This document shows, in pieces, positions 4,502 to 23,083 of a stretch of DNA of 64,000 nucleotides; position 1 is the first letter of the stretch, and the number at the start of each line of letters is the position of its first letter. The notes under the pieces are model-generated. The model ran no database searches, was not told the origin of the DNA, and worked only from the letters and a program-made list of their open reading frames with translations. Where the stretch lies: contig JAEEXH010000001.1 of the NCBI GenBank assembly GCA_016291435.1, positions 59,661-123,660 of the forward strand, in the 5' to 3' direction. The DNA is from Oscillospiraceae bacterium (lineage in GTDB: Bacteria > Bacillota > Clostridia > Oscillospirales > Ruminococcaceae). A program made the position numbers and the translations under genes.

Positions 4502-4539
4502 GTGTGTTCTCCTTGGTTTGTGTTCGGGCTGCGTTAGGT

Positions 4540-7553: not shown

Positions 7554-8104
7554 CCCTCCTCACTCAAGAATTTCCGCAGCTTTTTGCGGGTGCGCATCAG
7601 CGTGACGGTCACCCGGCTCTGCGAGATGCCGAAGGCTTCGGCGATCTCCCGCGTGCTGCGGTCGTTTCCGTAGTAATGCACAAAGATCATGACAGTCATC
7701 TTCGGGAGCGTCTTCAGAAACCGCCCGACTGCTTCATCCAGAAGCCGCTCCTCCATGAGCTGCTCGATGGAATCGCCTGCCGGCTCCCTGCCGCGGCTAA
7801 GATCGTGGAGCGGGATCTCCGCCTGTCCGCCGCCGCGCTTCTTTGCCTGCTTCTGCTCCGCACGGTTGAGCGAAAGCCGCTTCACCGTCGTGTGCAGATA
7901 GGCGCCGAAGCTCTTCGGGGCTGCGGGCGGGACTGCGCTCCAGACTTGCAGCAGCGCGTCGTTCCAGACCTCCTCTGCGTCCTGCTCGCTGTGCAGAATG
8001 CGCATCGCGAGCTTTTTGCAGGCGCCGCCGTACTGCGCCGTCAGCGCCCTGAGCGCCGATTCATCGCGCTTTTGCAGCAGCGTTAAGATCTGCCTGTCCG
8101 TCAT
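7544..8104 (-). CDS. ECF-type sigma-70 family factor (module 1)
   Basis: 186 aa. Region 2-like DAEEVWNDALLQVWSAVPP...YLHTTVKRLSLNR and a region 4 HTH REIAEAFGISQSRVTVTLMRTRKKLRKFL. Confidence 0.88.
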   Translation of the reverse strand: MTDRQILTLLQKRDESALRALTAQYGGACKKLAMRILHSEQDAEEVWNDALLQVWSAVPPAAPKSFGAYLHTTVKRLSLNRAEQKQAKKRGGGQAEIPLHDLSRGREPAGDSIEQLMEERLLDEAVGRFLKTLPKMTVMIFVHYYGNDRSTREIAEAFGISQSRVTVTLMRTRKKLRKFLSEEGWL

Positions 8105-8191
8105 TGTTCATCACTTCCCTGCGTGTTTGAGTGGGAAAGGCGTTCCGGAACCGTCATTCCCCCGTCATATGAGTGTCACTCTGTATTAGTA

Positions 8192-8219
8192 TGACAGGAA
8201 AAAATGCGGTTTCGCTACA
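8192..8219 (-). promoter_or_regulatory. ECF-type promoter-like motif TGTAGC-N16-CTGTCA (module 1)
   Basis: Minus-strand reading: TGTAGC gaaaccgcattttttc CTGTCA, followed by tactaatACAGAG. The position and motif are shared with modules 2-6. Confidence 0.5.
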
Positions 8220-8260
8220 CCTGCGGGGAAAATTTTTATTGCGGGCAATCCATTCCTCCT

Positions 8261-9949
8261 TTATTCGAGCGGCCCGTATTCATGATCCCAGCCGTTCTCA
8301 TAGAATGTGCCGTCATCGGGATTGTAACAGTAGTTGTGGATCAGCGTACACTGCGGCTCCCATTCCGGGCTGCCGCTCAGCAGTGAATCAATGCTGCACC
8401 GGCAGAGCACGCCGGGCGTCTCGCCGTCGCCGACATAGAGCACGCCTTCCGCATTCTTCTCGATCGCGTTGTAATCCAGCGCATAGAGGAAGCCGTCGCG
8501 CACCGACAGCTTGCGCAGCGCATGCCGGAAGCGATAGCTGACCGTTTGCAGAAGCTCACGGCTCGCAAGGTCGTAGACGCTGATGCGGTATTCCGCCTTC
8601 TGTACGCCGTCCTCCTTCATCACAACACGGCTCAGGCCGTAGAATCTGCTGCCGTCTGTCGTATAATCCTCAAATGCCGCATCCAAGAGCTTTTCGGATT
8701 CGCCGGTGTCAAGATTCATTTTCATGGTGTAGGATACATTCGGCGTGCGCACCTGATAAATCAAAGTGCTGCCGCACATCGTAAAGCCCGTCATGCCGTT
8801 ATTGGCACCCGAGACAACCTGCCTGTGCGCGCCTGTTTTCAGATCTATCGCAAAAATGCCGTTGCTGTTTTTCGCCTGCCAGTCGCCGCCGCCGATCTGA
8901 TAGCAGAGCCAGTCGCCGCCCGCACAGAGCATGACAGGCGTCGGATATATGATGTTCGACTCCGCATCCGGCATCGAGCGGTAAAGCTCCAGCGTCTTGC
9001 CGGTCGCGATCTCATAGCCGAAGATGGCGTAGCCTGTGTTGGATGTGTTCTCATCGCTCGGATTCTCGGGGTTGAAATCCGCCAGACGGTGATGCAGCTC
9101 TGCCATCCACCAGACATAGCCGCGGTGAATGACAGGCGTGCCGATGGGCATGGAGCATTCCGCCTTGATGCGGGCAAGCTCCGTGATGCCGGTGCCGTCG
9201 GGCGCATAGGAGAGCAGATAGGTGTATTCGCTGTTATACTGATCACGGTCTCCGGCTGCGGCATAGAGCACGCCGTCATAGGCAACAAGCCCGTGCTGCA
9301 CATATTTTTCCACAGACGCTTCGCAGAAATCATCGCCGTAATGCAGACAGTTCGGTCTTGCACAGAGCGGCACCTCCCCGCCGGATTCCGCATCGCTGTA
9401 TCCGATTATGCTTATGCCGCTTCGGTGGTCGGCATAAAACTTCGTGATCAGCTCATCCTGTTCGGTTTCGTCAAGCTGCGCGAGCGTATCATATGCGAAT
9501 GTGTTGACGATCGAGTGATACCAGCCGGTATCGGAGGCGGTGTACCAGAAACTGTAATTCTCAAGCGGACTGTGGAACCGCTGTGCCGAGTTGTCCCACT
9601 GCTGATCGGTGAGATGCAGCCCGAGTGTGTTCTGCTCTGTCTGCCCCGAAAGCTCCGCGGCACGGCTGCTGCCGTCAGACTGATTGTTTCCGCCGTTTGT
9701 GCCGCGCATTGCAACGATTGCCGCCATGCCGCCGCCGCCCAGCACTGCCGCCGCGAGCACCCCCGCGAACACATATTTCCCGATCCTCCGCCGCTTTTCT
9801 CTGCGCTGTTCTTTTTCCATATCAAATGCCTTTCCCTTCTGCCTCTGCGCGAACTCCGAAGGAGAGCAAAGTCTTGCGGAAAGCTCCGCAAAATACCGCT
9901 GATCGGCACGCGGCAAAGCATGCAGAAAGGCGCGTTCCTTTTTGTTCAC
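8261..9949 (-). CDS. single-pass membrane sensor paralog P3 (putative anti-sigma of module 2)
   Basis: 562 aa. The GTG start at 9949 overlaps the sigma stop (GTGA). TM AAAVLGGGGMAAIVAMRG and ectodomain PLCARPNCLHYGDDFCEAS. Confidence 0.85.
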   Translation of the reverse strand: MNKKERAFLHALPRADQRYFAELSARLCSPSEFAQRQKGKAFDMEKEQRREKRRRIGKYVFAGVLAAAVLGGGGMAAIVAMRGTNGGNNQSDGSSRAAELSGQTEQNTLGLHLTDQQWDNSAQRFHSPLENYSFWYTASDTGWYHSIVNTFAYDTLAQLDETEQDELITKFYADHRSGISIIGYSDAESGGEVPLCARPNCLHYGDDFCEASVEKYVQHGLVAYDGVLYAAAGDRDQYNSEYTYLLSYAPDGTGITELARIKAECSMPIGTPVIHRGYVWWMAELHHRLADFNPENPSDENTSNTGYAIFGYEIATGKTLELYRSMPDAESNIIYPTPVMLCAGGDWLCYQIGGGDWQAKNSNGIFAIDLKTGAHRQVVSGANNGMTGFTMCGSTLIYQVRTPNVSYTMKMNLDTGESEKLLDAAFEDYTTDGSRFYGLSRVVMKEDGVQKAEYRISVYDLASRELLQTVSYRFRHALRKLSVRDGFLYALDYNAIEKNAEGVLYVGDGETPGVLCRCSIDSLLSGSPEWEPQCTLIHNYCYNPDDGTFYENGWDHEYGPLE

Positions 9950-10515
9950 AATAAGCCCTCCCCGTTCAGAAATTTTCGCAGCTTAAGGCGTGTGCGCATC
10001 AGCGTGACAGCCGCCTTGCTGTAAGTGATCGCAAAGGCATCCGCGATCTCCCCGACCGACTTCCCGTTCACATAGCGGTGCAGGAAGATGGTGCGGGCTT
10101 CGGGTGTGAGCGTTGACAGAAAGCGGTTGACCGCCTCTGTCATCAGTGCTTCATCCATGATCTGCTCAACGGAGACCTTTGCGGGCTGCTGCCGCGCCGC
10201 TGCATCGTCGAGTGAAAGCTCCGGCAGACCGCCGCCGCGCTTTTTCGCGCGCTGTTTCTCGCGTTTCTGATATGCGTGCCGCCTGAGAACGGTGCAGAGA
10301 TAGGCAAAAAGATCCTCCGGCTCAGCGGGCGGAATCGCATTCCAGAGGCTCAGGAGCGTATCGTTCCAGACCTCTTTCGCGTCCTCCTCGGAGTGCAGGA
10401 TATTTGCCGCAATGTTTCTGCCGGCGCCGCCGTATTTTTTCGATACGGCTCGGAGCGCTTTTTCGTCCCGCGCTGCAAACAGAGCGAGAATCTGCTTGTC
10501 TTCCGTTGCAATCAC
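9946..10515 (-). CDS. ECF-type sigma-70 family factor (module 2)
   Basis: 189 aa paralog of 7544-8104 (EEDAKEVWNDTLLSLWNAIPP...; HTH GEIADAFAITYSKAAVTLMRTRLKLRKFL). The start is GTG at 10515 or the adjacent ATT; see findings. Confidence 0.85.
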   Translation of the reverse strand: MIATEDKQILALFAARDEKALRAVSKKYGGAGRNIAANILHSEEDAKEVWNDTLLSLWNAIPPAEPEDLFAYLCTVLRRHAYQKREKQRAKKRGGGLPELSLDDAAARQQPAKVSVEQIMDEALMTEAVNRFLSTLTPEARTIFLHRYVNGKSVGEIADAFAITYSKAAVTLMRTRLKLRKFLNGEGLL

Positions 10516-10552
10516 TTCCTTTCCATGAGATAGAGACCGTCTCTATTTCACC

Positions 10553-10580
10553 AGATCGGAACCGGGCTCTGTATATTACA
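10553..10580 (-). promoter_or_regulatory. ECF-type promoter-like motif TGTAAT-N16-CGATCT (module 2)
   Basis: Minus-strand reading: TGTAAT atacagagcccggttc CGATCT ggtgaaATAGAG. Confidence 0.5.
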
Positions 10581-10626
10581 CTTGATATGAAAAAAATTTC
10601 TGCGTGTACAATGCACCTGCCTTTCC

Positions 10627-12261
10627 TTATTTGAGCGACACCTCCGAGAGCGTCAGCACGGTCTCGCAGTCTGAAGCATCCGTATCTCCGCGCAGCACAT
10701 CCGCCGTCGGGATGCGGCAGAGACAGGCGTTTGCGTCCGCGTCCGGATTGAAGTCGCCTTCCCTGATCAGACCGTCCTCATAGATAGTGTCGTAGCGAAG
10801 ATCGAAGCCGTCCGTCACAAACCAGAGATACCCGTCACGGACAAAATACCGCAGGATTTTGCCGCGCGATGTAAGGTCGATGCGTGCAAGCGTTCTGCCC
10901 GCCGCATCCCCGACCGCGATCCCGTGCGCATGCGTATCTTCCCCGTAATCTGACCACTGCCAGAAGGTATACTCCCCCTGCTTCAGCACAAACGGGAACG
11001 CCTCGCCCGCATCGCCGAGCTTCTGCCGCATCCCCTTCGTGATCTCGCCGGTTTCGTAATCGCAGAACTTATACGCCGGTTCAATGCCTGCGTCATCCCT
11101 GTAATAAATGCCGTCTGTACCCGCAAAGAAGTCCCCCGCGTACAGACGCACATTTTCCTCGAGCCGTTCGCAGGCAAATGTGCCGAGATCCATGCGGTAA
11201 ATACCGCTGTGTGTGCCTGTTTCGAGCGCATAGAGCGCACTGCCTTTGCACCAGATCTGCTCCGGGCTGCCGTATACCGTATGCTCGCCTTCCGGCGGGA
11301 GATTCAGATACAGCGTATACGCCTGCTTTTCCGCAAAGTCATAGCAGACAACTGCCCAGCCGCCGCGCACGGCTTTGGTGACGGTGCCGACATCCGGCTG
11401 CTCCGTGACCGCCTGCTCTGCAACAGAGAGCGCCGCAAAGAGATACCCTTTGTGGATGCAGAAATCCTGCACCGCGATCTGTGCATTCGGCAGGTCGCTT
11501 GTGAACTGCACAAGCTCCTCGATTCCGGTACCGTCAGGCGCATAGGAGAGCAGGAAGCAGCCCTTGCTGTCTGCGCCTCTGCCCTTTTCCGCAACGGTAT
11601 AAAGCCCGCCGTCCCAGCTCAGCAGATGATGTGTCTCATAGGCTTTTGTCGATGCCTCGCAGTATTCATTGCCGTCGTGCAGACAGTTTGCCCTTGCACA
11701 GAGCGGCACGGTCTCGCCGGTCGCCTTGTCCTTGTAGCAGAAATAATCTGCCGTGATCTCCGTCTGTTCTTCCGGCGGGGCATATTTGTCCCTCCTGCGG
11801 AAGAACCAGCCGTTCTCTGTTTCCGTGACATACGGATTCACGCTGATGCCGCGCAGACTGTCTGCAATGTAATAATCCTGCTCCGGCATGAGCCGCGCGG
11901 TGAAATCGTCATCGCCGCCCTCCGTGAGACGGAGCGCCGGGGTATCGACCCCTTCCGTGATATTTTTCAGTTTGACACCGACGGTGTTCCGCTGAAAGAT
12001 GCTGCCGCCCTGCGTGCCGCGCATTGCAACGATTGCCGCCATGCCGCCCGCGCCGAGCACTGCCGCCGCGATCAAACCCGCGGCCGCGATTTTTCCGATT
12101 CTGCCGATTTTCCCTCTGGTTTCCCGCTGCTTCATAAGACGCTGTCCTTTCCGGGCAGCCGTTTCACTGCGGTGCCGTTCGATGCGGCGCGTCACCATAT
12201 CAAAATAGCGGCGGTCTGCACGCTCGACAGCTTGCAGAAAATCCTTTTCCGTGATCTTCAC
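10627..12261 (-). CDS. single-pass membrane sensor paralog P4 (putative anti-sigma of module 3)
   Basis: 544 aa. ADRRYFDM, TM AAAVLGAGGMAAIVAMRG and PLCARANCLHDGNEYCEAS (codons 11659-11700). 4-nt overlap with the sigma stop. Confidence 0.85.
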   Translation of the reverse strand: MKITEKDFLQAVERADRRYFDMVTRRIERHRSETAARKGQRLMKQRETRGKIGRIGKIAAAGLIAAAVLGAGGMAAIVAMRGTQGGSIFQRNTVGVKLKNITEGVDTPALRLTEGGDDDFTARLMPEQDYYIADSLRGISVNPYVTETENGWFFRRRDKYAPPEEQTEITADYFCYKDKATGETVPLCARANCLHDGNEYCEASTKAYETHHLLSWDGGLYTVAEKGRGADSKGCFLLSYAPDGTGIEELVQFTSDLPNAQIAVQDFCIHKGYLFAALSVAEQAVTEQPDVGTVTKAVRGGWAVVCYDFAEKQAYTLYLNLPPEGEHTVYGSPEQIWCKGSALYALETGTHSGIYRMDLGTFACERLEENVRLYAGDFFAGTDGIYYRDDAGIEPAYKFCDYETGEITKGMRQKLGDAGEAFPFVLKQGEYTFWQWSDYGEDTHAHGIAVGDAAGRTLARIDLTSRGKILRYFVRDGYLWFVTDGFDLRYDTIYEDGLIREGDFNPDADANACLCRIPTADVLRGDTDASDCETVLTLSEVSLK

Positions 12262-12824
12262 AGCCAGCCCTCCTCATTCAGATATTGCCGCAGTTTTTTT
12301 CGGACGCGCATGAGCGTCACGGCGACCTTGCTGCGCGAGATGCCGAACGCCTTTGCGATTTCCGTAAAGCTGCGGTGGTTTCCGTAATGATGCACAAAGA
12401 TCGTCAGGGTCTCCTCAGGGAGCGTTGAGAGAAAGCGGTTGACCGCCTCCTCCAGCATCCGCGCCTCCATCAGCTCCTCGACCGTTTTGCCGCCCGATGC
12501 GGGATGACGGTGTTCGGGGAGTGCGTCAAGCGAGGTCTCCGCTCTGCCGCCGCCGCGCTTTATCGCCTGCCGCTTTTCGAGACGCTTCAGCGCAAGATGC
12601 CGGACGGCCGTGTGCAGATAGGCGCCGAGATCATCGGGCTCTGCGGGCGGGACAGCGTTCCAGAGATTCAGCAGGGCGTCGTTCCAGACCTCCTCTGCAT
12701 CCTCATCCGATTGCAGGATATTCCGTGCAATGCGCAGCCCCATCGGGCGATATGCCGCGGTGAGTGCCGCGAGCGCTGATTCATCGCGCCTTTGCAGCAG
12801 GGCGAGGATCTGCCTGTCGTTCAT
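12258..12824 (-). CDS. ECF-type sigma-70 family factor (module 3)
   Basis: I chose the ATG at 12824 (MNDRQILALLQ) because it has GGAAG 8 nt upstream. The track ORF extension to 12962 runs through the promoter motif and is rejected. Confidence 0.85.
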   Translation of the reverse strand: MNDRQILALLQRRDESALAALTAAYRPMGLRIARNILQSDEDAEEVWNDALLNLWNAVPPAEPDDLGAYLHTAVRHLALKRLEKRQAIKRGGGRAETSLDALPEHRHPASGGKTVEELMEARMLEEAVNRFLSTLPEETLTIFVHHYGNHRSFTEIAKAFGISRSKVAVTLMRVRKKLRQYLNEEGWL

Positions 12825-12899
12825 TGTGATCACTTCCATTCCGTTTGTGTGCGCGGTTCCGGAGCCGCAGCACTGTGCAGAGAATTCTCTGTACTGGTA

Positions 12900-12927
12900 T
12901 GACCGGAAACAGATCTGAATGGTTACA
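12900..12927 (-). promoter_or_regulatory. ECF-type promoter-like motif TGTAAC-N16-CGGTCA (module 3)
   Basis: Minus-strand reading: TGTAAC cattcagatctgtttc CGGTCA taccagtACAGAG. Confidence 0.5.
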
Positions 12928-12984
12928 CATGCGGGAAAAAAATTTTTGTTTGGAAAGATCATCTCCTTTCAGATGATGCTGTAT

Positions 12985-14613
12985 TCAGTTCAGCAGTGCG
13001 CTGAGCCGCTGAATCTTCTCGATCGTGCAGACCGTTTCCCAGTCGGCGCTGCCCGCTTTGAGATCAGCCGTTTTGCAGCGAACAAGACAGGTGTCCGGGT
13101 CGTCCGCCGAGATCATGCCGCCGCTGCGGTAAGAAGGTCCCATCAGCGCACAGATGTCGCCGCCGATGAGCCGCAGCGTGAGGAAATCGCGGTCTGCGGG
13201 GCCTTCCAGCGTCCCCTGAAGCTGCATATCCATGTCGTAGAGATAAACCGTGCAGTGATCGTCAGCGGTGCCTGCCTGCTTGCAGATCGCGACATGCTTT
13301 CCGTCCGAAACCGTGATGCCGCTCGGGATATCGCTGTATATTTTGCTTTCGCCGGTCTCGGTGTCCAGAATGCAGAACTGATACTGATTCACCTTGACCT
13401 GCTTGCGGCAGAGGATATATTTGCCTGCCGTACCCTCACGGGCATAGCTTGCTGTGCCGCTCAGCAGCGTCTTCACCTCGCCGCTGCGCAGATCGAGCCC
13501 GTAGAGACCGACGGTGTAGGTCGCAGGCCAGCCGGATTCGCTTGAGAAATAGAGCATATCGCCGCCTGCCGAAAGAAACCGCGGCGGCTCCTCATAGCCC
13601 TTGGAGTTGTTCTCCTTCGGCATGACACTGAGCACCTCTGTCGTTTTGCCAGTCGCGATCTCGTAGGCATAGACCGCATAGCCTGTGCCCTTATGGGGAT
13701 TGTTGAAATCAAATTCGCTCTCGCTTGGCGAGGCGCCGTTCCGCACACGGTACAGGCAAAACACATAGCCGCGGTGGATGATCATATCCAGCGGGTCTGC
13801 CTCGCCCTTGCTGAACACCGCAAGCTCCGTGATGCCCGTGCCGTCAAGCGCATAGGAGAGCAGGCAGCGGCGGTAATTCTCGGGGTCGTCCTCATCGGTC
13901 GAGCGCGCCGCACAATAGAGCACGCCGTCATAATAAAGCGGTTTCCCGCGGTAATACTTTGCTGTTGTCGCCTCGCAGTATTCATTGCCGTCATGCAGGC
14001 AGTTCGGGTGCGCACAGAGCGGCACATCCTCGCCGGTCTCGCTGTCATAATACCAGATGATGTCATTGCGCGGCTTGGAAGTGTTATATGCGCTTTCCGC
14101 CGCATCCATCCTTTCATTCTCCGCGTCGGTATAGGAATTCTCCCCGCCTCCGCGCAGATCGTCGATCAGTTCAAAATTGATCTCATGATACCAGCCTGTA
14201 TCCGATGCCGTGAACCACATCTGGTCTGCGATATAGGAGTCGCCGGTATTGATCTCGCACCACTCCCCGCCGTCGGTGAGATTGAGATGCAGCGCTGCGG
14301 TGCCGTCTGTCTGCGAGGATGTGACCTCTGCGGCACGGCTGCTGCCGTCAGACTGATTGTTTCCGCCCTGCGTGCCGCGCATTGCGACGATTGCCGCCAT
14401 GCCGCCCGCGCCGAGCACTGCCGCCGCGATCACACCCGCGGCCGCGATTTTTCCGATTTTTCCAAGATGCTTTCCCACTTTGGATGCCTTCCCTTTCCGG
14501 GATGCCGCAAACGCATCCGGGTCGGCGCGGCGCCTTGCGATCTCCGCATAGAAGCGCCGGTCTGCATCCTTCATGAGCCGCAGAAATTCCTGCTCCCTGT
14601 GTTTCACAGCCAT
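12985..14613 (-). CDS. single-pass membrane sensor paralog P5 (putative anti-sigma of module 4)
   Basis: 542 aa. ADRRFYAE, TM AAAVLGAGGMAAIVAMRG and PLCAHPNCLHDGNEYCEAT. 10-nt overlap with the sigma stop. Confidence 0.85.
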   Translation of the reverse strand: MAVKHREQEFLRLMKDADRRFYAEIARRRADPDAFAASRKGKASKVGKHLGKIGKIAAAGVIAAAVLGAGGMAAIVAMRGTQGGNNQSDGSSRAAEVTSSQTDGTAALHLNLTDGGEWCEINTGDSYIADQMWFTASDTGWYHEINFELIDDLRGGGENSYTDAENERMDAAESAYNTSKPRNDIIWYYDSETGEDVPLCAHPNCLHDGNEYCEATTAKYYRGKPLYYDGVLYCAARSTDEDDPENYRRCLLSYALDGTGITELAVFSKGEADPLDMIIHRGYVFCLYRVRNGASPSESEFDFNNPHKGTGYAVYAYEIATGKTTEVLSVMPKENNSKGYEEPPRFLSAGGDMLYFSSESGWPATYTVGLYGLDLRSGEVKTLLSGTASYAREGTAGKYILCRKQVKVNQYQFCILDTETGESKIYSDIPSGITVSDGKHVAICKQAGTADDHCTVYLYDMDMQLQGTLEGPADRDFLTLRLIGGDICALMGPSYRSGGMISADDPDTCLVRCKTADLKAGSADWETVCTIEKIQRLSALLN

Positions 14614-15173
14614 CCCTCCTCGTGCATTGCCTTCCGAAGCCTGATGCGCGTCCGCATCAGGGTGACAGCAACCTTGCTCCGCGAAATGTGAAATTCCGCC
14701 GCGATCTCTGAGACGGTCTTTCCCGTGCCGTAATGCTCCAGAAAAATCGTTCTGGCATCGGGTGAGAGCGCCGTGAGAAAGCGGTTGACGGAATCGAGCA
14801 TCATGGCGCGCTCCATGAGCTCCTCCACATCATTGCTCTGCGGGTGGTGCTTTTCGGAGATTGCTTCCAGTGAGAGCTCCGGCTGACCGCCGCCGCGCTT
14901 CTGCGTGTTTTTCTTCTCGAGCCTTTGCAGCGAGAGCCGCCGCACGGCGGTGCAGAGATAGGCAAAGAGATCGTCGGGCTTTGCGGGCGGGATCGCATTC
15001 CAGAGATGCAGCAGGGCATCGTTCCAGATTTCCTCTGCGTCCGCCTCTGAGTGCAGTATATCCCTTGCGATTTTGCGCCCGGCTCTGCCGTACTGCTTTG
15101 TCAGCAGATGCAGCACCTGTTCGTCGCGCTGCTCGAGCATTCTGATCAAGCGGCTGTCTTCCGTTGTCATCAC
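14604..15173 (-). CDS. ECF-type sigma-70 family factor (module 4)
   Basis: 189 aa paralog. GTG at 15173 is followed directly by ATG at 15170; the ATG is the more likely start given GAAAGG 5 nt upstream. Confidence 0.85.
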   Translation of the reverse strand: MMTTEDSRLIRMLEQRDEQVLHLLTKQYGRAGRKIARDILHSEADAEEIWNDALLHLWNAIPPAKPDDLFAYLCTAVRRLSLQRLEKKNTQKRGGGQPELSLEAISEKHHPQSNDVEELMERAMMLDSVNRFLTALSPDARTIFLEHYGTGKTVSEIAAEFHISRSKVAVTLMRTRIRLRKAMHEEGWL

Positions 15174-15200
15174 TTCCTTTCGAGGTCCCTCTGTTTACTG

Positions 15201-15228
15201 GGATCGGAAAAGCAGGGATTTGTTTACA
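15201..15228 (-). promoter_or_regulatory. ECF-type promoter-like motif TGTAAA-N16-CGATCC (module 4)
   Basis: Minus-strand reading: TGTAAA caaatccctgcttttc CGATCC cagtaaACAGAGGG. Confidence 0.5.
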
Positions 15229-15267
15229 CCTCCGGATATATTTTTATATTTTATCTTTTTCAGATAT

Positions 15268-15451
15268 GAATTCGCAATGCGCAATTCGCAGTGCGCAATG
15301 AAGGTGTCGGCTTGCGCCGACGAATTTGGATTGAGCTCTGCCCAACCCTGACAAACAGATTACTTACGCCAAGGGGCTTGGGCGTCAGCCCCATTCATAA
15401 TCATCGCGAAGCGATACCGCCATTGCGCATTTCGCATTGCAAATTGCGCAC
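15268..15451. repeat. MITE-like element with GCGCAATG-type terminal inverted repeats and internal mini-hairpins
   Basis: Left end gaattcgcaatgcgcaattcgcagtgcgcaatg; right end cattgcgcatttcgcattgcaaattgcgc. The core (gtcggcttgcgccgac ... gcccc attcataatcatcgcgaagcgatac) is the reverse complement of the core at 60791-60963. Confidence 0.8.
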
Positions 15452-15459
15452 TGATTCTG

Positions 15460-17097
15460 TCAGTTTTCGGGTTCAGGGTGCTCCGCACGCCATGCCTCCA
15501 TGTCGATCTCGTGCATCTTCACCAGCGTACACGCCTGCTTCCATTCCGCATTGCCCGCAAGCAGCGCCTCCCGGCTGCATGACAGCACGGCGGCATCCTT
15601 TGCGATGATGCCGGATGTCTCCTGGATTTGCCCCTGATACTCCGTAATGACGCCGTCCGTGATGACTGTGACCGTGTCGCCGAACACCATGATTCTCCGC
15701 ACGCACTGATGATCGGGCACGCGCAGGGAGGCGACCTCCTTGCCCGTCATATCCAGCACGCGCACAGCATAGCTCATAACCTCCCTGCTTTTATCCGCCT
15801 CAGCCGAGTAGATATAGCTTCCGTCCGTCACAGAGTACGAGAGCGAGCCGTTATACAGCGTTTCCGTTTCGCCGGTCGCCGCATCGGTTGATTTTACCTT
15901 GTCCGGCGTGGCATCAAAATCCGTGTAATAGACTTTGCTGCCGGATACGGCAAAAACAGCCTCCTTATCCACGAGCTGTTTATGGCTGCCGTCTGTGAGA
16001 TTCAGCGCATAGATGCCTTGTTTGTTGGTATTCTGCCATGTGCCGTTTCCTATGGAATAGAACAGATAATCGCCGCCTGCCGAAAAAGTCCACGGTGCAT
16101 CTTGCCTGATACCGGAGCCTGCCTTCGGCATACAGCTATAGATCTCCGTCGCCTTGCCCGTGGCAATCTCATAGCCGAGAATCGCATAGCCGCTGTCGCT
16201 TTTTGTCACAAAGCCCGCCGCATCATATTCCAGCGGATTGATTTTCATGAAAATGCAGAACACATAGCCGCGGTGAACAACCGGTGTGCAGATCACATCG
16301 GTATACTGCTCGCCGAATGTGCAGAGCTCGGTGATGCCCGTGCCGTCCGGCGCATAGGAAAGCAGCACGGCGGTTGTCTTTTTCGGTACTGTTCCATCCG
16401 ATTTCAGTTCATCGAAATTCAGCGTTTTCAGCGCGGAAGCGTAGATCACGCCGTCCACACAGACCGGATCCGAGCGGCGGTAGGTATTCGAGGTCGCTTC
16501 GCAGTATATGCTGCCGTCATGCAGGCAGTTCGGTCTTGCGCAGAGCGGCACATCCTCGCCGGTTTCGCCGTCGCAGAACATGAGCGGCAGGTTTTCCAGA
16601 TAAAGCTTCGTCGGATACAACTCCTGCTGTGCTTCAAAGAACTCCTCGCCGAGCTCGCCGTCTGAGGGCGCTGCCGTCTCATCATAGCTGTGATACCAGC
16701 CGTTTTCGGTCGGGAACGCACAGCCGTAACCCGTGCTGCCATAGGAATCCGACTGCATGGCATTCCACTGCTGATCGGTGAGATTGAGACTGAGCGCTTC
16801 CGCGTGCTGCTCCTCGACCATACTGCGCATGTCGCGGGATTCCTCGCTGACGATGCCGAAGCCGCCGCGCATCGCGACCGCTGCCGCAATGCCGCCTCCG
16901 CCGACGAGTGCCGCTGCGAGCACCACGCCCCACGCAAGCTTCTTGTGATGTTTTTTCTCCGCAGATTTCATTTTGCGTGTTCCTCCTGCTCCGTATTTCG
17001 CTGCGAAAGCCTGAGGATCCGCTGCCCGGTCTGCGGCCATTTTGAAGAAACGGCGGTCTGCGCCTTTGACCGCACGCAAAAATTCCTTTTCCGTCAT
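15460..17097 (-). CDS. single-pass membrane sensor paralog P6 (putative anti-sigma of module 5)
   Basis: 545 aa. ADRRFFKM, TM LAAALVGGGGIAAAVAMRG and PLCARPNCLHDGSIYCEAT. ATGA overlap with the sigma stop. Confidence 0.85.
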   Translation of the reverse strand: MTEKEFLRAVKGADRRFFKMAADRAADPQAFAAKYGAGGTRKMKSAEKKHHKKLAWGVVLAAALVGGGGIAAAVAMRGGFGIVSEESRDMRSMVEEQHAEALSLNLTDQQWNAMQSDSYGSTGYGCAFPTENGWYHSYDETAAPSDGELGEEFFEAQQELYPTKLYLENLPLMFCDGETGEDVPLCARPNCLHDGSIYCEATSNTYRRSDPVCVDGVIYASALKTLNFDELKSDGTVPKKTTAVLLSYAPDGTGITELCTFGEQYTDVICTPVVHRGYVFCIFMKINPLEYDAAGFVTKSDSGYAILGYEIATGKATEIYSCMPKAGSGIRQDAPWTFSAGGDYLFYSIGNGTWQNTNKQGIYALNLTDGSHKQLVDKEAVFAVSGSKVYYTDFDATPDKVKSTDAATGETETLYNGSLSYSVTDGSYIYSAEADKSREVMSYAVRVLDMTGKEVASLRVPDHQCVRRIMVFGDTVTVITDGVITEYQGQIQETSGIIAKDAAVLSCSREALLAGNAEWKQACTLVKMHEIDMEAWRAEHPEPEN

Positions 17098-17663
17098 AGC
17101 CAGCCCTCCTCATTCAGATACTTTTTCAGCTTGATGCGGGTGCGCATCAGACTGAGCGCAGCCTTGTTCCGTGAAATTTGGTACATGTCTGCGATCTCCG
17201 CGATGCTTTTGCCGTTGCCGTAGCGCTGCACAAAGATCGTGCAGGCATCGGGCGAAAGCGACTGCAAAAAGCGGTTGACCGCATCGTTCAGGAAAATCGC
17301 GCCGACCGTTTCCTCGACCGCATTGCGTGCGGGCTGGGCGTGCTCGGGGAGATTTTCGAGCGACAGTGCCGCCTGTCCGCCGCCGCGCTTCTGCGCGTTC
17401 CTCTGATCGAGCCGTTTATAGCAAAGATTGCGCACAACGGTCGTGAGATAGGCGTAGAAATTATCGGGGCGTGCGGGCGGGATTGCATTCCAGACCTGCA
17501 TCAGTGCATCGTTTAAGACCTCCTCCGCGTCCTGCTCGGAATGGAGCAGATGCGCGGCGAGATTTCTGCATGCCCTGCCGTATTGCTTCGAGACCGCAGC
17601 GAGGGCAGCTTCATCGCGTGCAAAGAACAGATCGAGGATCTGCCTGTCGTTCAATGTGATCAC
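17094..17663 (-). CDS. ECF-type sigma-70 family factor (module 5)
   Basis: 189 aa paralog. The track start is GTG at 17663. By alignment with module 3 (ATG AAC GAC AGG CAG), the TTG at 17654 (TTG AAC GAC AGG CAG) is an alternative start. Confidence 0.82.
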   Translation of the reverse strand: MITLNDRQILDLFFARDEAALAAVSKQYGRACRNLAAHLLHSEQDAEEVLNDALMQVWNAIPPARPDNFYAYLTTVVRNLCYKRLDQRNAQKRGGGQAALSLENLPEHAQPARNAVEETVGAIFLNDAVNRFLQSLSPDACTIFVQRYGNGKSIAEIADMYQISRNKAALSLMRTRIKLKKYLNEEGWL

Positions 17664-17696
17664 ATCCTTTCGGTATGAGGTACCTCTATTTCACAA

Positions 17697-17724
17697 GAAC
17701 GGTTTTGGAGGGAGGATATTTCAT
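17697..17724 (-). promoter_or_regulatory. ECF-type promoter-like motif TGAAAT-N16-CGTTCT (module 5)
   Basis: Minus-strand reading: TGAAAT atcctccctccaaaac CGTTCT tgtgaaATAGAGG. Confidence 0.45.
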
Positions 17725-17862
17725 GCCTGCGAAAATTTTTCAAAAGTGTCTCCGACGGATTTATCATGGGGGGCTTCCCGCCGGAACCTGTTCGGCAAGC
17801 TGTGTTTATTATACCATATTTTTCCCTGTTTCCATAGACCGCCTTCTTTCTTTTTTCCGCTG

Positions 17863-19485
17863 TCAGCCGTAGGCCGCTTCAGCAGTGACAAATTCAAACA
17901 CCGTCTCCCAGTGCGGATCATCTGCGATCAGATCAGATAGATCACAGCAGAGGAGCTTCGCCGATTCGCTCTTCTGCCGCTTCTGCACCGAAATCTCCGG
18001 GTCCTGCGTGTAATAATACAGCTGATACAGCTTTCCGTCATGCACCTTCATGTTGCCGAAGACCGCATTCTCAGGGCGCTGCACGCTTGCGATCTGATTC
18101 CATTCGCTGTCAAAAATCACGGTCACATCACGCGAGCTGCCCGATGTGTTTTCGTAATCGGTGCGCTCGGCAATCACATAATCGCCTGCCTGCACAAGCC
18201 GATGGTAATTGTCCCTCATATCGAACGGGAGCTCCGTATTCTCGCCGGTTTCAAGGTCATAGCTGTAATTCAGATAGATCGGTGTGCCACTGCCGTGTTC
18301 CTTTGCGGCATCCGTCTTATAATAGATTTTCTGCTTTGCCGCAAACAGAAGATTCTGCGATATTTCATAGCCCGCAAGCGGGAGCTTTTCGCAGGCGCCG
18401 GTCACAAGATTGATCGCATAGATTCCCTTCGGCTCGGGCGACGGCCATTTCGCAAACTGATAGCTGAAATAGATTCTGTCGCCTGCCGCCAAAAGAGATC
18501 CGTTCGGCACATCGTATTCCTTGCCCTCGTCCGCGCCCGGCATCGAGCGGAAGATCTCCGCTGTTTTGCCGCTTGCCAGCTCATAGCCCCGGATAACAAA
18601 GCCGCTCGAAACCTGCCGCTTTGTTTCGCCTGTGAATTCATCCCCGGTTTCCTCGCCGTAATAGCTGTAATCTTTGTAGACCGCAAAGATGCAGCCGCGA
18701 TGCAGGATCGGGTCGCCGATCAGCTCCGCCTTCGGGTGCACATCAAAGTGTGCAAGCTCCGTGATGCCGCTGCCGTCCGGCGCATAGGCGAGCACATAGC
18801 CCGCGTCATATCCGCCCTTGTCGTTTCGCTTCGAGGCAAGCGCATAGAGCGCATCGCCGTAAGGGATCAGCGCCGAGCGGTCGGCATAGCCCTTTGTGGA
18901 GGCTTCGCAGAAATCGCTGCCGTCGTGGAGACAGTTTGCGCGCGCGCAGAGCGGCAGCGTTTCGCCGGTCTCGCTGTCTGTGAAGACAACGCCGTGATTC
19001 ATCGGCAGATTTTCATACCAGTCAAGATAGCCGAGACCGTCATAATTGCCGTCTGCATCCGTTTTGATCTCGGTGCGATAGATCTGCTCGTGATAAAAGC
19101 CCTTGTCTGTCGCAGCAAACCAGAGATGCTCCTGCGGGGATACAGACTGCCCGTAGCTTTTGCAGAAGAGATCGTTCCATTCCTGATTTGTGAGCGTCAG
19201 CCCGCTTTGCGCGGTGACAGTCTGCTCCGTGTGATTGTTTCCGCCGTGTGCACCGCGCAGCGCGACCGTTGCCGCTATGCCGCCCGCACCGAGCACTGCC
19301 GCGGCGATCACCGCAGTGAGCGCATATTTTGTGATGCGCCGGATCTTTTGCTTTTGCATGAGATGCCTTCCCTTCCGGGCGGCTGCCCCAGCTTTTGTCT
19401 CCGCAATGCGGCGCTTCACCATGTCATAATATCTGCTGTCCGCCTCCCGCACGGCGGCGCGCAGTATCTGATCATCCAGCTTCAC
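17863..19485 (-). CDS. single-pass membrane sensor paralog P7 (putative anti-sigma of module 6)
   Basis: 540 aa. ADSRYYDM, TM AAAVLGAGGIAATVALRG and PLCARANCLHDGSDFCEAS. 4-nt overlap with the sigma stop. Confidence 0.85.
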   Translation of the reverse strand: MKLDDQILRAAVREADSRYYDMVKRRIAETKAGAAARKGRHLMQKQKIRRITKYALTAVIAAAVLGAGGIAATVALRGAHGGNNHTEQTVTAQSGLTLTNQEWNDLFCKSYGQSVSPQEHLWFAATDKGFYHEQIYRTEIKTDADGNYDGLGYLDWYENLPMNHGVVFTDSETGETLPLCARANCLHDGSDFCEASTKGYADRSALIPYGDALYALASKRNDKGGYDAGYVLAYAPDGSGITELAHFDVHPKAELIGDPILHRGCIFAVYKDYSYYGEETGDEFTGETKRQVSSGFVIRGYELASGKTAEIFRSMPGADEGKEYDVPNGSLLAAGDRIYFSYQFAKWPSPEPKGIYAINLVTGACEKLPLAGYEISQNLLFAAKQKIYYKTDAAKEHGSGTPIYLNYSYDLETGENTELPFDMRDNYHRLVQAGDYVIAERTDYENTSGSSRDVTVIFDSEWNQIASVQRPENAVFGNMKVHDGKLYQLYYYTQDPEISVQKRQKSESAKLLCCDLSDLIADDPHWETVFEFVTAEAAYG

Positions 19486-20048
19486 AGCCTGCCCTCCTTA
19501 TCGAGCCATTTCCACAGCTTCCTGCGGGTGCGCATCAGCGTCACGGCAACCTTGCTCTGCGTGATGCCGAACGCCTCAGCGATCTCGCGGATGCTGCGGC
19601 CGTTTCCGTAGTAATGCACAAAGATCGTGACAGTCTCCTCCGGCTGCGTGCCGAGAAAGCGGTTCACAGACGCATAGAGCGCACGGGCATCCATAAGCTC
19701 CTCCACGCTTTTCCCGGCGGGGTGCAGGCTTTCCGGCAGCGCATCGAGCGAAACCGGGCTTCTGCCGCCGCCGCGCTTCTGCGCGTTTCTCTGCTCCAGA
19801 CGGTTGAGCGAAAGCCGCTTCACCACCGTATGCAGATAGGCGCCGAGACTGCGCGGCTGCTCCGGCGGAATGCTGCTCCAGATTTGCAGCAGCGCATCGT
19901 TCCAGACCTCTGCCGCGTCCTCCTCGCTTCCGAGCAGGCGGCAGGCGAGCTTTCTGCACTGTGTCCCGTACTGCGCCGTCAGCTCCCGCAGTGCCGTTTC
20001 ATCGCGGCTTTGCAGGAGACGGAGAATCTGTCTGTCGGTCAATGTCAT
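19482..20048 (-). CDS. ECF-type sigma-70 family factor (module 6)
   Basis: ATG at 20048 (MTLTDRQILRLLQ) follows GAAAGGAAG. The track extension to 20261 runs through the promoter motif and a repeat element and is rejected. Confidence 0.85.
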   Translation of the reverse strand: MTLTDRQILRLLQSRDETALRELTAQYGTQCRKLACRLLGSEEDAAEVWNDALLQIWSSIPPEQPRSLGAYLHTVVKRLSLNRLEQRNAQKRGGGRSPVSLDALPESLHPAGKSVEELMDARALYASVNRFLGTQPEETVTIFVHYYGNGRSIREIAEAFGITQSKVAVTLMRTRRKLWKWLDKEGRL

Positions 20049-20122
20049 CACTTCCTTTCGGGCGGTAAAGCTGCGCTCCGGAGCACATCTCCGCCTTTCC
20101 AGAGGCGTCCCTCTACAATACA

Positions 20123-20150
20123 TGACAGGAAACAGGGAAAGTTTCTTACA
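20123..20150 (-). promoter_or_regulatory. ECF-type promoter-like motif TGTAAG-N16-CTGTCA (module 6)
   Basis: Minus-strand reading: TGTAAG aaactttccctgtttc CTGTCA tgtattGTAGAGGG. Confidence 0.5.
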
Positions 20151-20262
20151 ATGCGGAATGCGCAATGGCAGTATCGCTCCGCGATGATGGATCATGGGCG
20201 AAGCCCATTCTGAATCATCGGCGAAAGCCGACACTTTCATTGCGCATTGCAAATTGCACATT
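20150..20262. repeat. short member of the GCGCAATG-TIR MITE-like family
   Basis: gcggaatgcgcaatggcagtatcgctccgcgatgat...gggcgaagccc...ggcgaaagccgacactttcattgcgcattgcaaattgc. Confidence 0.75.
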
Positions 20263-20274
20263 GAGCATTCAATT

Positions 20275-20748
20275 TTATTCGGGTTCCAGCTCCATGCGGA
20301 GACGCTGATGCCCGCGCCGGAGCCATGCGCTCACGGTGTTCGGCCTGGCATCGAGCATTTCTGCGATCTCGCGGATCTTGTAGCCCGCGCAGTCGTGGAG
20401 ATAGACCGCCGCGGAATAGGGCTGCGGCAGTGCGGCGATCAGTGCAAGGATCTCCGCGGAATTGTCGGGCTCCGCGGGCAGGTCTGCGATGTCCTCCACA
20501 TCCGTCCGCATGCGGCTCCAGAGGCTTTTCCGCAGATTCTTTGCGCGGTTCATCACGGCGCGCAGGATATACGCTTTCAGGTGCGCGTCGCTTTCAAACT
20601 GCACGGGCTTTCTGTGCAGCGCAAAGAACACCTCCTGTGCGATGTCCTCCGCGTCCTCGCGGCTGCCCGTTGCACAGTAAGCCGCCTGCAATGCCGTGTC
20701 GCCGAATTTCCGGAAGGCATAGAGCGCGATGTTTTCCTGATTCAGCAT
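20275..20748 (-). CDS. ECF sigma factor of a different lineage (157 aa; module 7, located downstream of its membrane partner)
   Basis: Region 2 DAEDIAQEVFFALHRKP...YILRAVMNRAKNLRK and region 4 YKIREIAEMLDARPNTVSAWLRRGHQRL. The ATG at 20748 lies 9 nt after the P8 stop, with GGAGTGAGG upstream. Confidence 0.88.
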   Translation of the reverse strand: MLNQENIALYAFRKFGDTALQAAYCATGSREDAEDIAQEVFFALHRKPVQFESDAHLKAYILRAVMNRAKNLRKSLWSRMRTDVEDIADLPAEPDNSAEILALIAALPQPYSAAVYLHDCAGYKIREIAEMLDARPNTVSAWLRRGHQRLRMELEPE

Positions 20749-22543: not shown

Positions 22544-22586
22544 CGCCCTCTGTTATATATACAACCGTGAGGGCGGTTTTCGTGCA
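22544..22586 (-). promoter_or_regulatory. conserved upstream element of module 7, near-identical to 4540-4582
   Basis: See feature 4540-4582. Contains GAAAAC-N16-TATATA followed by ACAGAGGGC. Confidence 0.5.
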
Positions 22587-22669: not shown

Positions 22670-22920
22670 TCGGTCAAGCCTTTTCAAAGGCTTGCAGGGT
22701 CGAGGGGCAGCGCCCCCGCCGCCCGTCGCAACGGGCGGAATCTCCAGACTTTAGGAGCTCCGCAAGGGTGAATCTCAAAAAGCATCCAGCGGATGTTTTT
22801 TGAGAGAGGGACGCATGTTTGCTTCGCAAACTGCGCAGTTCCACAAAGTGGAACATGCGCCTGCGATAGAGGGCGCCCCTAGGCGAATCGCTTTGCGATT
22901 CGCGATCTCTGGACTTTATT
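22670..22920. repeat. intergenic chain of short stem-loops (hairpin-chain mosaic repeat)
   Basis: Successive small palindromes: aagcctttt/caaaggctt, cgcccgtcgcaacgggcg, catccagcggatg followed by a T-run, gttccacaaagtggaac and cgaatcgctttgcgattcg. Confidence 0.7.
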
Positions 22921-22982
22921 GACAGACCGGGATATAGATTATCATACAACAATTTCACAGAATATGCAAGTCTTGTCCGATA

Positions 22983-23011
22983 TTGACAAAAGGCGCGAAA
23001 AACGATATAAT
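22983..23011 (+). promoter_or_regulatory. consensus sigma-A promoter of the leu/ilv operon
   Basis: TTGACA (22983-22988), a 17-nt spacer and TATAAT (23006-23011). Confidence 0.8.
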
Positions 23012-23023
23012 AAGTGTAAACTC

Positions 23024-23060: not shown

Positions 23061-23083
23061 CATATCACGAAAGGACATTCATC

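Follow-up and report, generated by a model that had tools for sequence, protein, structure and literature searches.

Putative autoregulated promoters in a tandem array of six ECF sigma factor modules from an Oscillospiraceae bacterium

Six ECF sigma factor genes lie in tandem within the 64,000-nucleotide stretch of DNA analysed here (the window), and the gap upstream of each contains a nearly interchangeable promoter-like motif. The question raised by this locus, already posed in a preliminary description of the sequence, is which sigma factor reads each promoter and how far the modules are insulated from one another. The answer that we consider probable is that each of the six promoters is read by the ECF sigma encoded directly downstream, that the membrane protein encoded with each sigma (the partner) acts as its inhibitor, and that promoters are also read across modules.

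The six sigma genes encode proteins of 186 aa (sigma 1, 7544-8104), 189 aa (sigma 2, 9946-10515), 188 aa (sigma 3, 12258-12824), and 189 aa (sigma 4, 14604-15173; sigma 5, 17094-17663; sigma 6, 19482-20051). The modules are encoded on the minus strand, which also carries all six motifs; the preliminary description did not give the strand of genes or motifs. The products matched the Pfam models Sigma70_r2 and Sigma70_r4_2 (and Sigma70_ECF), and positions 4-184 of the sigma profile aligned end to end with the structures of AlgU, SigW, and SigE; all six sigmas were also aligned with one another. In addition, sigma 3 scored 81.9 bits against TIGR02937 (cutoff 42.9). ECF (group 4) sigmas have regions 2 and 4, no region 3 or 1.1, and a length of ~160-200 aa. 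The six proteins are genuine ECF (group 4) sigmas with regions 2 and 4 only.

The motif TG(T/A)A(A/G)N-N16-C(G/T)NTC was present in each of the six gaps 5' of these genes, which confirmed the ECF-type motif previously reported there. Using a position weight matrix (PWM) refined mostly on sites of other genomes, we obtained scores of 17.4 for the promoter of module 1 (TGTAGC-N16-CTGTCA, 8192-8219), 22.7 for module 2 (TGTAAT-N16-CGATCT, 10553-10580), 22.8 for module 3 (TGTAAC-N16-CGGTCA, 12900-12927), 18.4 for module 4 (TGTAAA-N16-CGATCC, 15201-15228), 16.7 for module 5 (TGAAAT-N16-CGTTCT, 17696-17723), and 16.2 for module 6 (TGTAAG-N16-CTGTCA, 20123-20150). Five of these positions had been given exactly, whereas that of module 5, reported as 17697-17724, was off by 1 nt. 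The tracts AAAAATTTT, AAATTTTTTT, and AAAAATTTTTTT lie 5' of the -35 element in modules 1, 2, and 3, respectively. Module 6 has no T-tract, and its -35 element borders the end of an inverted-repeat insertion. The third base of the -35 element is A in module 5 only. The -10 core CTGTCA is common to modules 1 and 6, and CGATC to modules 2 and 4. A site identical to the module 2 promoter was found in another contig (L001) of the same species. At the sequence level, the promoters of the sigma genes show the AAC-type -35 and CGT/GTC-type -10 elements typical of ECF sigmas.

A loose regular expression, TG[TA]A[AG]N-N16-C[GT]NTC, matched the window 8 times (3.25 expected), and six of these matches were the module sites; when the common (T/A)(T/A)C extension before the -10 element was added, 6 matches were found against 0.13 expected. 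With the PWM, the rest of the window scored at most 14.1, and a score of at least 16 is expected ~0.4 times per window. When the six upstream regions were aligned, the -35 and -10 elements, an AGAG block, and the ribosome-binding site were invariant, whereas the mean column identity was 49%. The sequence (T/A)(A/G)(C/T)AGAG 3' of the -10 element was invariant, with AGAG beginning 9-10 nt past the -10 hexamer. The AGAG block was thus present as described, but the pattern (A/G)TA(C/G)AGAG proposed for it literally fits modules 1 and 3 only.

The same promoter layout was found upstream of ~30 related sigma genes in other Oscillospiraceae and Clostridia genomes from gut and rumen: a T-tract, GTGTAAC, N10, TTTCCGGTCT, and then a purine block, 5-90 nt upstream. 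A matching site was present for 41 of 52 sigma relatives (33-67% identical; other Clostridia genomes), and its distance to the start codon was mostly 5-90 nt. The family consensus was aaaTTTTTt-N7-GTGTAAc-N10-TTTCCgGTCT-N8-9-purine block. In 424 kb of related loci, ~26 of 34 strong matches were located directly 5' of a family sigma gene, and relatives with a single module also retained the motif. The motif-based scan for regulons that had been suggested recovered the modules' own promoters, but the PWM detected no further target promoters, whether within the window or in DNA neighbouring the relatives.

Residue 8 of the region 4.2 recognition helix co-varied with the -35 bases across lineages, as judged by a permutation test that ignores phylogeny. 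V, T, or A at this residue accompanied TGTAA, S accompanied GCAAC, M accompanied TGTGAC, and L (..ALSL..) accompanied TGAAAT; the sigmas grouped by this residue did not form single clades. Such co-variation would be expected under cognate recognition. At this position V is found in five of the six sigmas; module 5 is distinct both in its -35 class, TGAAAT, and in its helix, ..AALSL.. (ISRNKAALSLMRTR). The -10 elements fell into two classes, C(T/G)GTCA with sigmas 1, 3, and 6 (region 2 GAYLHT) and CG(A/T)TC(T/C) with sigmas 2, 4, and 5 (region 2 (F/Y)AYL(C/T)T). Because the layout is conserved and the region 4.2 residue co-varies with the -35 element, the assignment of these sites as autoregulated ECF promoters is well supported at the level of sequence. 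The earlier proposal of positive autoregulation in all modules therefore stands for the ECF type and the autoregulatory placement of the promoters, which the ~30 relatives and the -35 co-variation support, while autoregulation itself is something that we still infer.

According to the proposed mechanism, RNA polymerase with the downstream-encoded ECF sigma would read each motif, giving positive feedback in each module. The promoter would consist of a T-tract ~8 nt upstream of the -35 element, the -35 element (G)TGTAA(C/T), a T/C-rich spacer end leading into the -10 element C(G/T)NTC, and a start region ~7-10 nt further, directly followed by a GAG..CTC dyad. Each promoter is predicted to drive two genes, for the sigma and the partner, with the partner start overlapping the sigma stop.

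A short GAG..CTC dyad with compensatory inner pairs was found in every leader at about +3 to +15, and the AGAG block is its 5' arm, which had been overlooked. The dyads, all on the minus strand, were GAGTG-A-CACTC in module 1 (8171-8181), ATAGAGAC-G-GTCTCTAT in module 2 (10530-10546), CAGAGAA/TTCTCTG in module 3 (12878-12891), GAGG-GA-CCTC in module 4 (15182-15191), GAGGT/ACCTC in module 5 (17677-17686), and AGAGG-GACG-CCTCT in module 6 (20101-20114). This leader dyad is a new element. A perfect stem of at least 5 bp was present in 17 of 33 non-redundant promoters, compared with 2.9 ± 1.6 in shuffled sequences, and all such stems began 6-10 nt past the -10 block. In the 14 closest sequences, inner positions 4 and 5 carried 3-4 types of Watson-Crick pair, and three G-T wobbles occurred. 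Most likely, the dyad would form an mRNA-stabilising stem-loop near the 5' end, although this is the least certain step of the mechanism. A possible but, in our view, poorer explanation is that a dimeric repressor binds the dyad as a DNA operator, or that the dyad arose as a by-product of palindrome-correcting mutation. In favour of this, GAG and CTC do not vary, the predicted stability as RNA hairpins is low (-1.8 to -9.4 kcal/mol), and the complementarity continues until only 0-2 nt are left as a loop, which is more than an RNA fold requires and fits a DNA palindrome better. However, 4-6 nt separate GAG from CTC, and the inner bases vary between modules yet stay complementary, so that structure suits the dyad better than the binding site of one protein, and the three tolerated G-T wobbles also argue against a DNA element. 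We thus favour a stem-loop.

The partner genes, all on the minus strand, encode proteins of 546 aa (partner 1, 5913-7553), 562 aa (partner 2, 8261-9949), 544 aa (partner 3, 10627-12261), 542 aa (partner 4, 12985-14613), 545 aa (partner 5, 15460-17097), and 540 aa (partner 6, 17863-19485). In partner 1, whose gene begins within the 3' end of the sigma gene, a short cytoplasmic N-terminus is followed by one transmembrane helix and a beta-propeller ectodomain. The partner start overlaps or abuts the sigma gene end in almost all of 36 relatives (4-nt overlap in 23), and every partner is a membrane protein with one transmembrane helix, a short N-terminal helix that is conserved, and an ectodomain that varies. 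The ectodomain of partner 5 was modelled (pLDDT 75.8, pTM 0.75) as a beta-propeller, with TolB, PDB 3s25, and prolyl-oligopeptidase propellers as Foldseek matches (E ~1e-7, TM-scores 0.3-0.56). Partner 5 also matched part of the DUF5050 model (PF16472, cutoff 27) with 31.6 bits; partner 2 gave a weak match (17.3 bits), and the other partners gave none. The DUF5050 family is defined by a PF16472 score above the gathering threshold and by a propeller of 7 blades. An invariant C-x4-C-x-H-x5-C motif precedes the propeller. The partner family is rare, with 27 clusters among 5.8 billion proteins.

The cytoplasmic part of the partner (~45-55 aa, modelled as three short helices) matched no Pfam or NCBIfam model. 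Class I anti-sigma factors (ASD/ZAS, RskA, FecR) have a recognised N-terminal domain of ~80-90 aa, often with HxxxCxxC; with neither a model match nor an N-terminal Cys/His motif, the partner was rejected as a member of this class. As the N-terminus fits no known anti-sigma domain model, it is synteny that points to an anti-sigma role. In this single-pass membrane protein, the short N-terminus on the cytoplasmic side probably keeps the sigma inactive, and the beta-propeller ectodomain would serve as the sensor.

Identity among the six modules was 69% for the recognition helix, 56% for the whole sigma, 39% for the partner N-terminus, and 28% for the partner ectodomain. As similarity among the modules is highest in the DNA-reading parts and lowest in the sensor domains, we predict that five of the six sigmas recognise each other's promoters, with module 5 (TGAAAT) partly apart. 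Insulation at the promoter level would be partial at best, because five sigmas share the residue that reads the -35 element and two pairs of promoters have identical -10 cores. Insulation would instead come mainly from sigma/partner pairing and operon design. Since each promoter drives the sigma and its membrane partner together, cross-activation may mostly add sequestered sigma: a promoter fired by a foreign sigma would yield sigma and inhibitor at once, leaving the module primed but not switched on. Read-through from upstream modules could add directional coupling, because no separating terminators lie between the modules; no terminator-like site was detected on the minus strand in any inter-module gap. 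The insulation puzzle set out in the preliminary description is thus real, but its special status was overstated, as promoter overlap among ECF paralogs is well documented, with precedents in B. subtilis sigma M, W, X, and V and in clostridial sigma-I paralogs. Of the two sources of specificity considered there, subtle bases and anti-sigma partners, the partners would be the main one; the sequences point to partial discrimination by the promoters at most.

It appears unlikely that each sigma reads only its own promoter through subtle bases matching regions 2 and 4, for which the last -35 base, the middle -10 base, and the base after it are candidates. In B. subtilis, a single -10 base (CGAC versus CGTA) decides whether a promoter is used by sigma X or by sigma W, and specificity is highest at autoregulatory promoters (PMC5758882); cross-talk is likewise limited among the sigma-I paralogs of cellulolytic clostridia (PMC6056542). 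The -10 and region 2 classes that separate sigmas 1, 3, and 6 from 2, 4, and 5, and the -35 element and helix peculiar to module 5, are in line with these cases, and the middle -10 base and the region 2 residues next to the loop, which differ between these classes, could provide more promoter-level discrimination than we assumed. However, modules 1 and 6 share an entire -10 hexamer, modules 2 and 4 share a -10 core, and five sigmas share V. The six modules have no more than four promoter classes available to them, and the separation of 1/3/6 from 2/4/5 may simply be ancestry, a single event. We therefore retain cross-reading as the preferred interpretation.

An even smaller probability attaches to control by one other sigma that reads all six promoters, which would make the array a regulon rather than six feedback loops. 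The candidates are a SigM-like ECF sigma (36472-36954) and a 157-aa ECF sigma (20275-20748). At the SigM-like gene, the site described earlier, TGTAAG-N16-CGTCTT followed by ..ACAGAAGG (36419-36446, plus strand), is indeed present and similar, and ECF promoter classes overlap widely (PMC5758882). Nevertheless, this 36.4-kb site scored below 10 with the family matrix and has GTC one base nearer to the -35 element; moreover, the -35 element co-varies with the region 4.2 helix of the immediately downstream sigma in many genomes, and single-module relatives keep the motif. Hardly credible is the last alternative, in which the motifs were copied with the genes and are unused while one long transcript is made from ~22.5 kb: the modules are indeed tandem paralogs without terminators between them, but the flanking intergenic sequence has diverged around invariant motif columns, the motif is kept before sigmas only 33-50% identical in ~25 other genomes, and the gene at 22.5 kb (a7) has no family-type promoter. 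Because ~30 sigma relatives elsewhere carry the same layout, the six motifs are, judging from conservation, more than a leftover of tandem duplication.

A bolder joint reading, which we offer tentatively, combines a shared-promoter OR-gate network with memory, gain control by the dyad, and a -35 recognition code. Six (originally more) diverged beta-propeller sensors would then release sigmas that read one another's promoters, so that any one signal would prime all modules. The GAG..CTC dyad would be a previously undescribed control element specific to this family, setting the feedback gain as an mRNA-stabilising stem-loop or an operator, and the pairs V-T, S-C, M-G, and L-A would form a simple -35 code for this Clostridia ECF family.

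If the autoregulation and cross-reading proposed here are correct, the array is a clean natural example of divergence in tandemly duplicated sensor and sigma modules, with change quickest in the sensor, slower at the inhibitor interface, and slowest in the DNA-reading parts. A further gain is a promoter model, with candidate residues for specificity, for a so far uncharacterised family of ECF sigmas in Oscillospiraceae of gut and rumen; both may be used for finding regulons in complete genomes and for designing orthogonal switches. General knowledge of ECF regulation is unchanged, because autoregulation and promoter overlap among paralogs are already established; the conserved promoter is real, is probably self-activating, and as such would be an ordinary feature of an ECF family.

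The modules resemble the B. subtilis sigma X, W, M, and V systems (PMC5758882), which are also group 4 sigmas with regions 2 and 4 and a co-encoded membrane inhibitor, have an 'AAC' -35, a 'CGT'-like -10, and a spacer of ~16 nt, and comprise paralogs with overlapping promoter recognition in one cell, tuned by single bases and T-tracts. In contrast to these, the window has C(G/T)NTC rather than CGT(A/C) at -10, a T-tract upstream of the -35 element rather than inside the spacer, partners without a recognised anti-sigma domain, and tandem rather than dispersed paralogs. The window sigmas were rejected as SigW equivalogs (30-36 bits; cutoffs 209 and 243) and as SigM equivalogs (28 bits with the SigM subfamily model; cutoff 148), and the SigX model was not among the 25 best models listed for them. 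Sigma-I/RsgI sets (PMC6056542, PMC10575876) similarly comprise several sigma and membrane anti-sigma pairs in one Clostridia genome, with a different extracellular sensor domain per pair, very similar promoters, and the same question of cross-talk. Such sets are defined by a sigma in which a SigI-type C-terminal domain replaces region 4 and by a partner with an RsgI N-terminal domain; the window modules have a canonical Sigma70_r4_2 and no SigI or RsgI domains in the Pfam scan, and were rejected as members. They also differ in having beta-propellers instead of carbohydrate-binding modules as sensors, in their tandem arrangement, and in that target genes were found for none of them. Firmicutes groups of the ECF classification 2.0 with single-pass anti-sigmas, such as ECF258 (PMC7826278), share the restriction to Firmicutes, a putative inhibitor with one transmembrane helix, and a promoter inferred from conservation 5' of the sigma gene; ECF258 partners carry DUF4179, for which the window partners gave no Pfam match. 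DUF5050/TolB-like proteins (PDB 3s25, EUBREC_1955) share the ectodomain fold, with weak to borderline DUF5050 matches, but in the window the propeller is fused to a transmembrane helix and a sigma-associated cytoplasmic segment.

The array holds further genes on the minus strand. An orphan partner paralog, a7 (584 aa, 20758-22512), has no cognate-type sigma, and no family-type promoter motif was found upstream of it; the unrelated 157-aa ECF sigma named above (minus strand) lies 9 nt downstream of a7. A lipoprotein-type paralog of the partner ectodomain, a8 (429 aa, 4611-5900), lies 12 nt downstream of partner 1. These two extra sensor paralogs and the unrelated sigma, absent from the preliminary description, are new here, as is the beta-propeller ectodomain of the partners. 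An ABC transporter adjoins the array, and ECF258 is likewise associated with ABC transporters (PMC7826278).

Between 4.6 and 22.5 kb of the window lies a gene block in which every gene is on the minus strand. The block holds six pairs (modules 1–6), each consisting of an ECF sigma gene (186–189 aa) followed by a gene for a membrane partner protein (540–562 aa), with an overlap of 4 or 10 nt between the sigma stop and the partner start. The sigma and partner genes were located at 7544–8104 and 5913–7553 (module 1), 9946–10515 and 8261–9949 (module 2), 12258–12824 and 10627–12261 (module 3), 14604–15173 and 12985–14613 (module 4), 17094–17663 and 15460–17097 (module 5), and 19482–20051 and 17863–19485 (module 6). 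All six sigmas are bona fide ECF (group 4) factors, with the Pfam domains Sigma70_r2 and Sigma70_r4_2. They pass the ECF superfamily model TIGR02937, and their profile matched the solved structures of AlgU, SigW, and SigE end to end; no named equivalog among the NCBIfam models was passed.

The preliminary description had placed an ECF-type promoter, TGTAAn-N16-CGnTC, upstream of each sigma gene. All six motifs were present as described when read on the minus strand, except that the coordinates for module 5 were one base off (correctly 17723–17696). An element downstream of the -10 was also found, but its literal pattern, (A/G)TA(C/G)AGAG, fitted only two modules and is better written (T/A)(A/G)(C/T)AGAG. 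A loose regular expression matched 8 times in the window, where 3.25 matches were expected, and six of the 8 were the module sites, each in its own gap upstream of a sigma gene; inclusion of the common (T/A)(T/A)C before the -10 gave 6 matches against 0.13 expected. When the six upstream regions were aligned, the -35, the -10, AGAG, and the ribosome-binding site formed the invariant columns, with a mean column identity of 49%.

Because the modules are tandem paralogs and the six copies are not independent, other genomes were the needed test. A scan of species-representative genomes identified 42 loci with related sigmas (33–63% identical), all from Oscillospiraceae, Clostridia, or Lachnospiraceae, nearly all metagenome-assembled and many from gut or rumen samples. 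One of them (L001, from the MAG CAMNAY01) was from the same species as the window, with modules 3 and 2 at 97–99% identity. In another Oscillospiraceae genome (locus L002; JAZQNP010000020.1, 3732–12281), four or more sigma/partner modules stand in tandem, every one of the sigma 2/4/5 type, a pattern suggesting that such arrays expanded independently in separate lineages. We seeded a two-block weight matrix with the six window sites and refined it on the relatives; it then identified sites for 41 of 52 sigma genes (the six of the window included), most of them 5–90 nt away from the start codon. Taken over 33 non-redundant sites, the consensus was aaaTTTTTt-N7-GTGTAAc-N10-TTTCCgGTCT-N8-9-purine block. 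The six window sites scored 16.2–22.8, where 0.4 sites per window are expected to reach a score of ≥16, and nothing else in the window exceeded 14.1. Of the 34 strong matches in 424 kb of related loci, about 26 were directly upstream of a family sigma gene. With this matrix, no target promoters beyond the modules' own were found in the window, and the related loci gave only background-level extras. Autoregulated ECF promoters are conventionally argued from conservation upstream of the sigma gene (PMC7826278), and that argument is strong here. Given the conservation across genomes, we rejected the view that the likeness of the motifs is a mere by-product of duplication. The autoregulation proposed earlier is well supported by this comparative evidence.

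Co-variation between sigma and promoter was also observed. In the region 4.2 recognition helix, residue 8 (the V that follows ISRSKVA and precedes TLMR in sigma 3) tracked the -35 family-wide: V, T, or A occurred with TGTAA, S with GCAAC, M with TGTGAC, and L, in an ..ALSL.. context, with TGAAAT. Neither the M group nor the S group is a single clade; the nearest relative of locus L006, for example, belongs to the V group. Since the permutation test ignores phylogeny, the co-variation is taken as supportive, not conclusive, of the cognate sigma reading the motif.

The near-interchangeable motifs had been regarded as an insulation puzzle. Across the six modules, sequence identity declines from the DNA-reading parts towards the sensor: it is 69% in the region 4.2 recognition helix, 56% over the whole sigma, 39% in the partner N-terminus, and 28% in the partner ectodomain. 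Five sigmas have V at helix position 8 together with TGTA(A/G)N; sigma 5 has an ..AALSL.. helix with TGAAAT, a combination shared by its closest relatives, L002a and L002c. The -10 hexamer CTGTCA is identical in modules 1 and 6, and the -10 core CGATC in modules 2 and 4. Sigmas 1/3/6 and 2/4/5 are separated by the middle base of the -10 and by residues beside the region 2 loop, a single split that may reflect ancestry. The core elements thus distinguish no more than about four classes among six modules, and cross-recognition among the modules' promoters is the likelier state. The question is a legitimate one, but it has clear precedents and likely a mundane answer. It resembles that of B. subtilis sigma M, W, X, and V, paralogs with overlapping promoter recognition in which single -10 bases switch specificity (PMC5758882), and that of the clostridial sigma-I paralogs, which show limited cross-talk despite similar promoters (PMC6056542).

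Operon design would remove most of the puzzle. Each promoter would make a sigma together with its start/stop-overlapped partner, and a foreign sigma firing that promoter would yield more sequestered sigma and sensor, that is, priming without release of activity. No minus-strand terminator-like site was detected in any gap between modules, and therefore read-through from upstream modules is possible, which would add directional coupling. When the gaps were folded, strong structure was confined to two inverted-repeat insertions, one upstream of module 4 and one upstream of module 6 (z = -6.65 and -4.60). Both are copies of a small MITE/REP-like element whose long terminal inverted repeats read TGCGCAATTTGCAATGCGAAATGCGCAATG ... 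CATTGCGCACTGCGAATTGCGCATTGCGAAT on the minus strand. They occupy 15270–15460 and 20152–20275, each separating a promoter (4 or 6) from the gene upstream of it. The copy at 20.2 kb adjoins the -35 of promoter 6, in place of its T-tract. The two copies might act as transcript barriers between modules.

The AGAG block proved to belong to a short dyad, of which it forms the 5' arm; the dyad lies around +3 to +15 and had been missed in the preliminary description. The dyads are GAGTG-A-CACTC (module 1), ATAGAGAC-G-GTCTCTAT (module 2), CAGAGAA/TTCTCTG (module 3), GAGG-GA-CCTC (module 4), GAGGT/ACCTC (module 5), and AGAGG-GACG-CCTCT (module 6). A perfect stem of ≥5 bp was present in 17 of 33 non-redundant family promoters, compared with 2.9 ± 1.6 in shuffled controls (maximum 7 in 300), and all such stems begin 6–10 nt after the -10 block. 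Pairs were counted with an anchored script because MAFFT left the loops ungapped and the 3' arms out of register. Among the 14 closest sequences, GAG and CTC were invariant, the inner positions 4 and 5 showed three to four Watson–Crick pair types, and three G–T wobbles occurred. Stem-loops near the 5' end are known to stabilise mRNAs in Firmicutes, and we favour such a role for the dyad. Against it, the hairpins are weak (-1.8 to -9.4 kcal/mol), and the complementarity extends into loops of 0–2 nt, which fits a DNA palindrome better. A single operator protein bound at that palindrome is in turn disfavoured by the GAG–CTC spacing, which varies from 4 to 6 nt. An Rfam scan of 4–24 kb gave nothing meaningful (best E-value 0.52). 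Together with the co-variation of residues and bases, the dyad adds modest value over known autoregulated ECF promoters. A second dyad, centred on TCCGGA, was seen on the minus strand in the long leaders of modules 1, 3, and 6 (GTTCCGGAAC, GCTCCGGAAC, and GCTCCGGAGC; about 8125–8140, 12845–12860, and 20070–20085), with one base pair differing compensatorily between modules 1 and 6.

Each partner has a cytoplasmic N-terminus of ~45–55 aa, one transmembrane helix, and an ectodomain of ~450 aa. Pfam and NCBIfam scans detected no anti-sigma domain in the partners; from synteny in 36 relatives we infer a putative anti-sigma role. The partner family is rare (27 clusters, without names or Pfam domains), and a literature search combining ECF sigma with DUF5050 found no papers. 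The predicted structure of the partner 5 ectodomain was a beta-propeller (pLDDT 75.8, pTM 0.75) resembling TolB, the DUF5050 representative 3s25, and prolyl-oligopeptidase propellers. Directly before the propeller, a C-x4-C-x-H-x5-C motif (PLCARPNCLHDGxxxCEA) was invariant in 32 of 32 aligned family members. This motif, modelled with low confidence at residues 186–199 of partner 5 (about 16500–16545, minus strand), might form either a metal site or a disulfide knot.

The array extends beyond the six modules first described. A seventh partner paralog of 584 aa (a7; 20758–22512, minus strand) lacks a cognate-type sigma; 9 nt downstream of it is a 157-aa ECF sigma unrelated to the module sigmas (20275–20748, minus strand). 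This region may be a decayed module. A dyad, AGAGG-GCGA-CCTC, persists upstream of a7 (about 22545–22560), but a decayed family promoter at 22.5 kb was rejected, as no -35/-10 match accompanied it. At the other end, a gene 12 nt beyond partner 1 (a8; 4611–5900, minus strand) encodes the propeller ectodomain as a lipoprotein-type copy, which has a signal peptide with an LTAC lipobox and neither a cytoplasmic nor a transmembrane part. An ABC transporter follows on the minus strand; the genes there encode an ABC ATPase (about 3617–4504) and a protein of 694 aa (1540–3624) that has about 7 transmembrane helices but gave no Pfam match. These may be output genes of module 1.

Elsewhere in the window, the stretch 36419–36954 (plus strand) contains a separate SigM-subfamily-like ECF (TIGR02950 111.8 bits, under the cutoff of 147.95) together with a TGTAAG-N16-CGTCTT promoter of its own, as stated earlier for the unrelated ECF at 36472. 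No dyad follows the -10 of this promoter, and the protein encoded downstream (36951–37607, plus strand) gave a weak zinc anti-sigma (RsrA-like) match. A perfect housekeeping-type promoter, TTGACA-17-TATAAT, was observed at 22983–23011 (plus strand), upstream of leuA-like (22919–24754) and ilvB-like (24789–26564) genes. Because it sits inside the longest leuA ORF, the true start codon of the leuA-like gene is probably further downstream.
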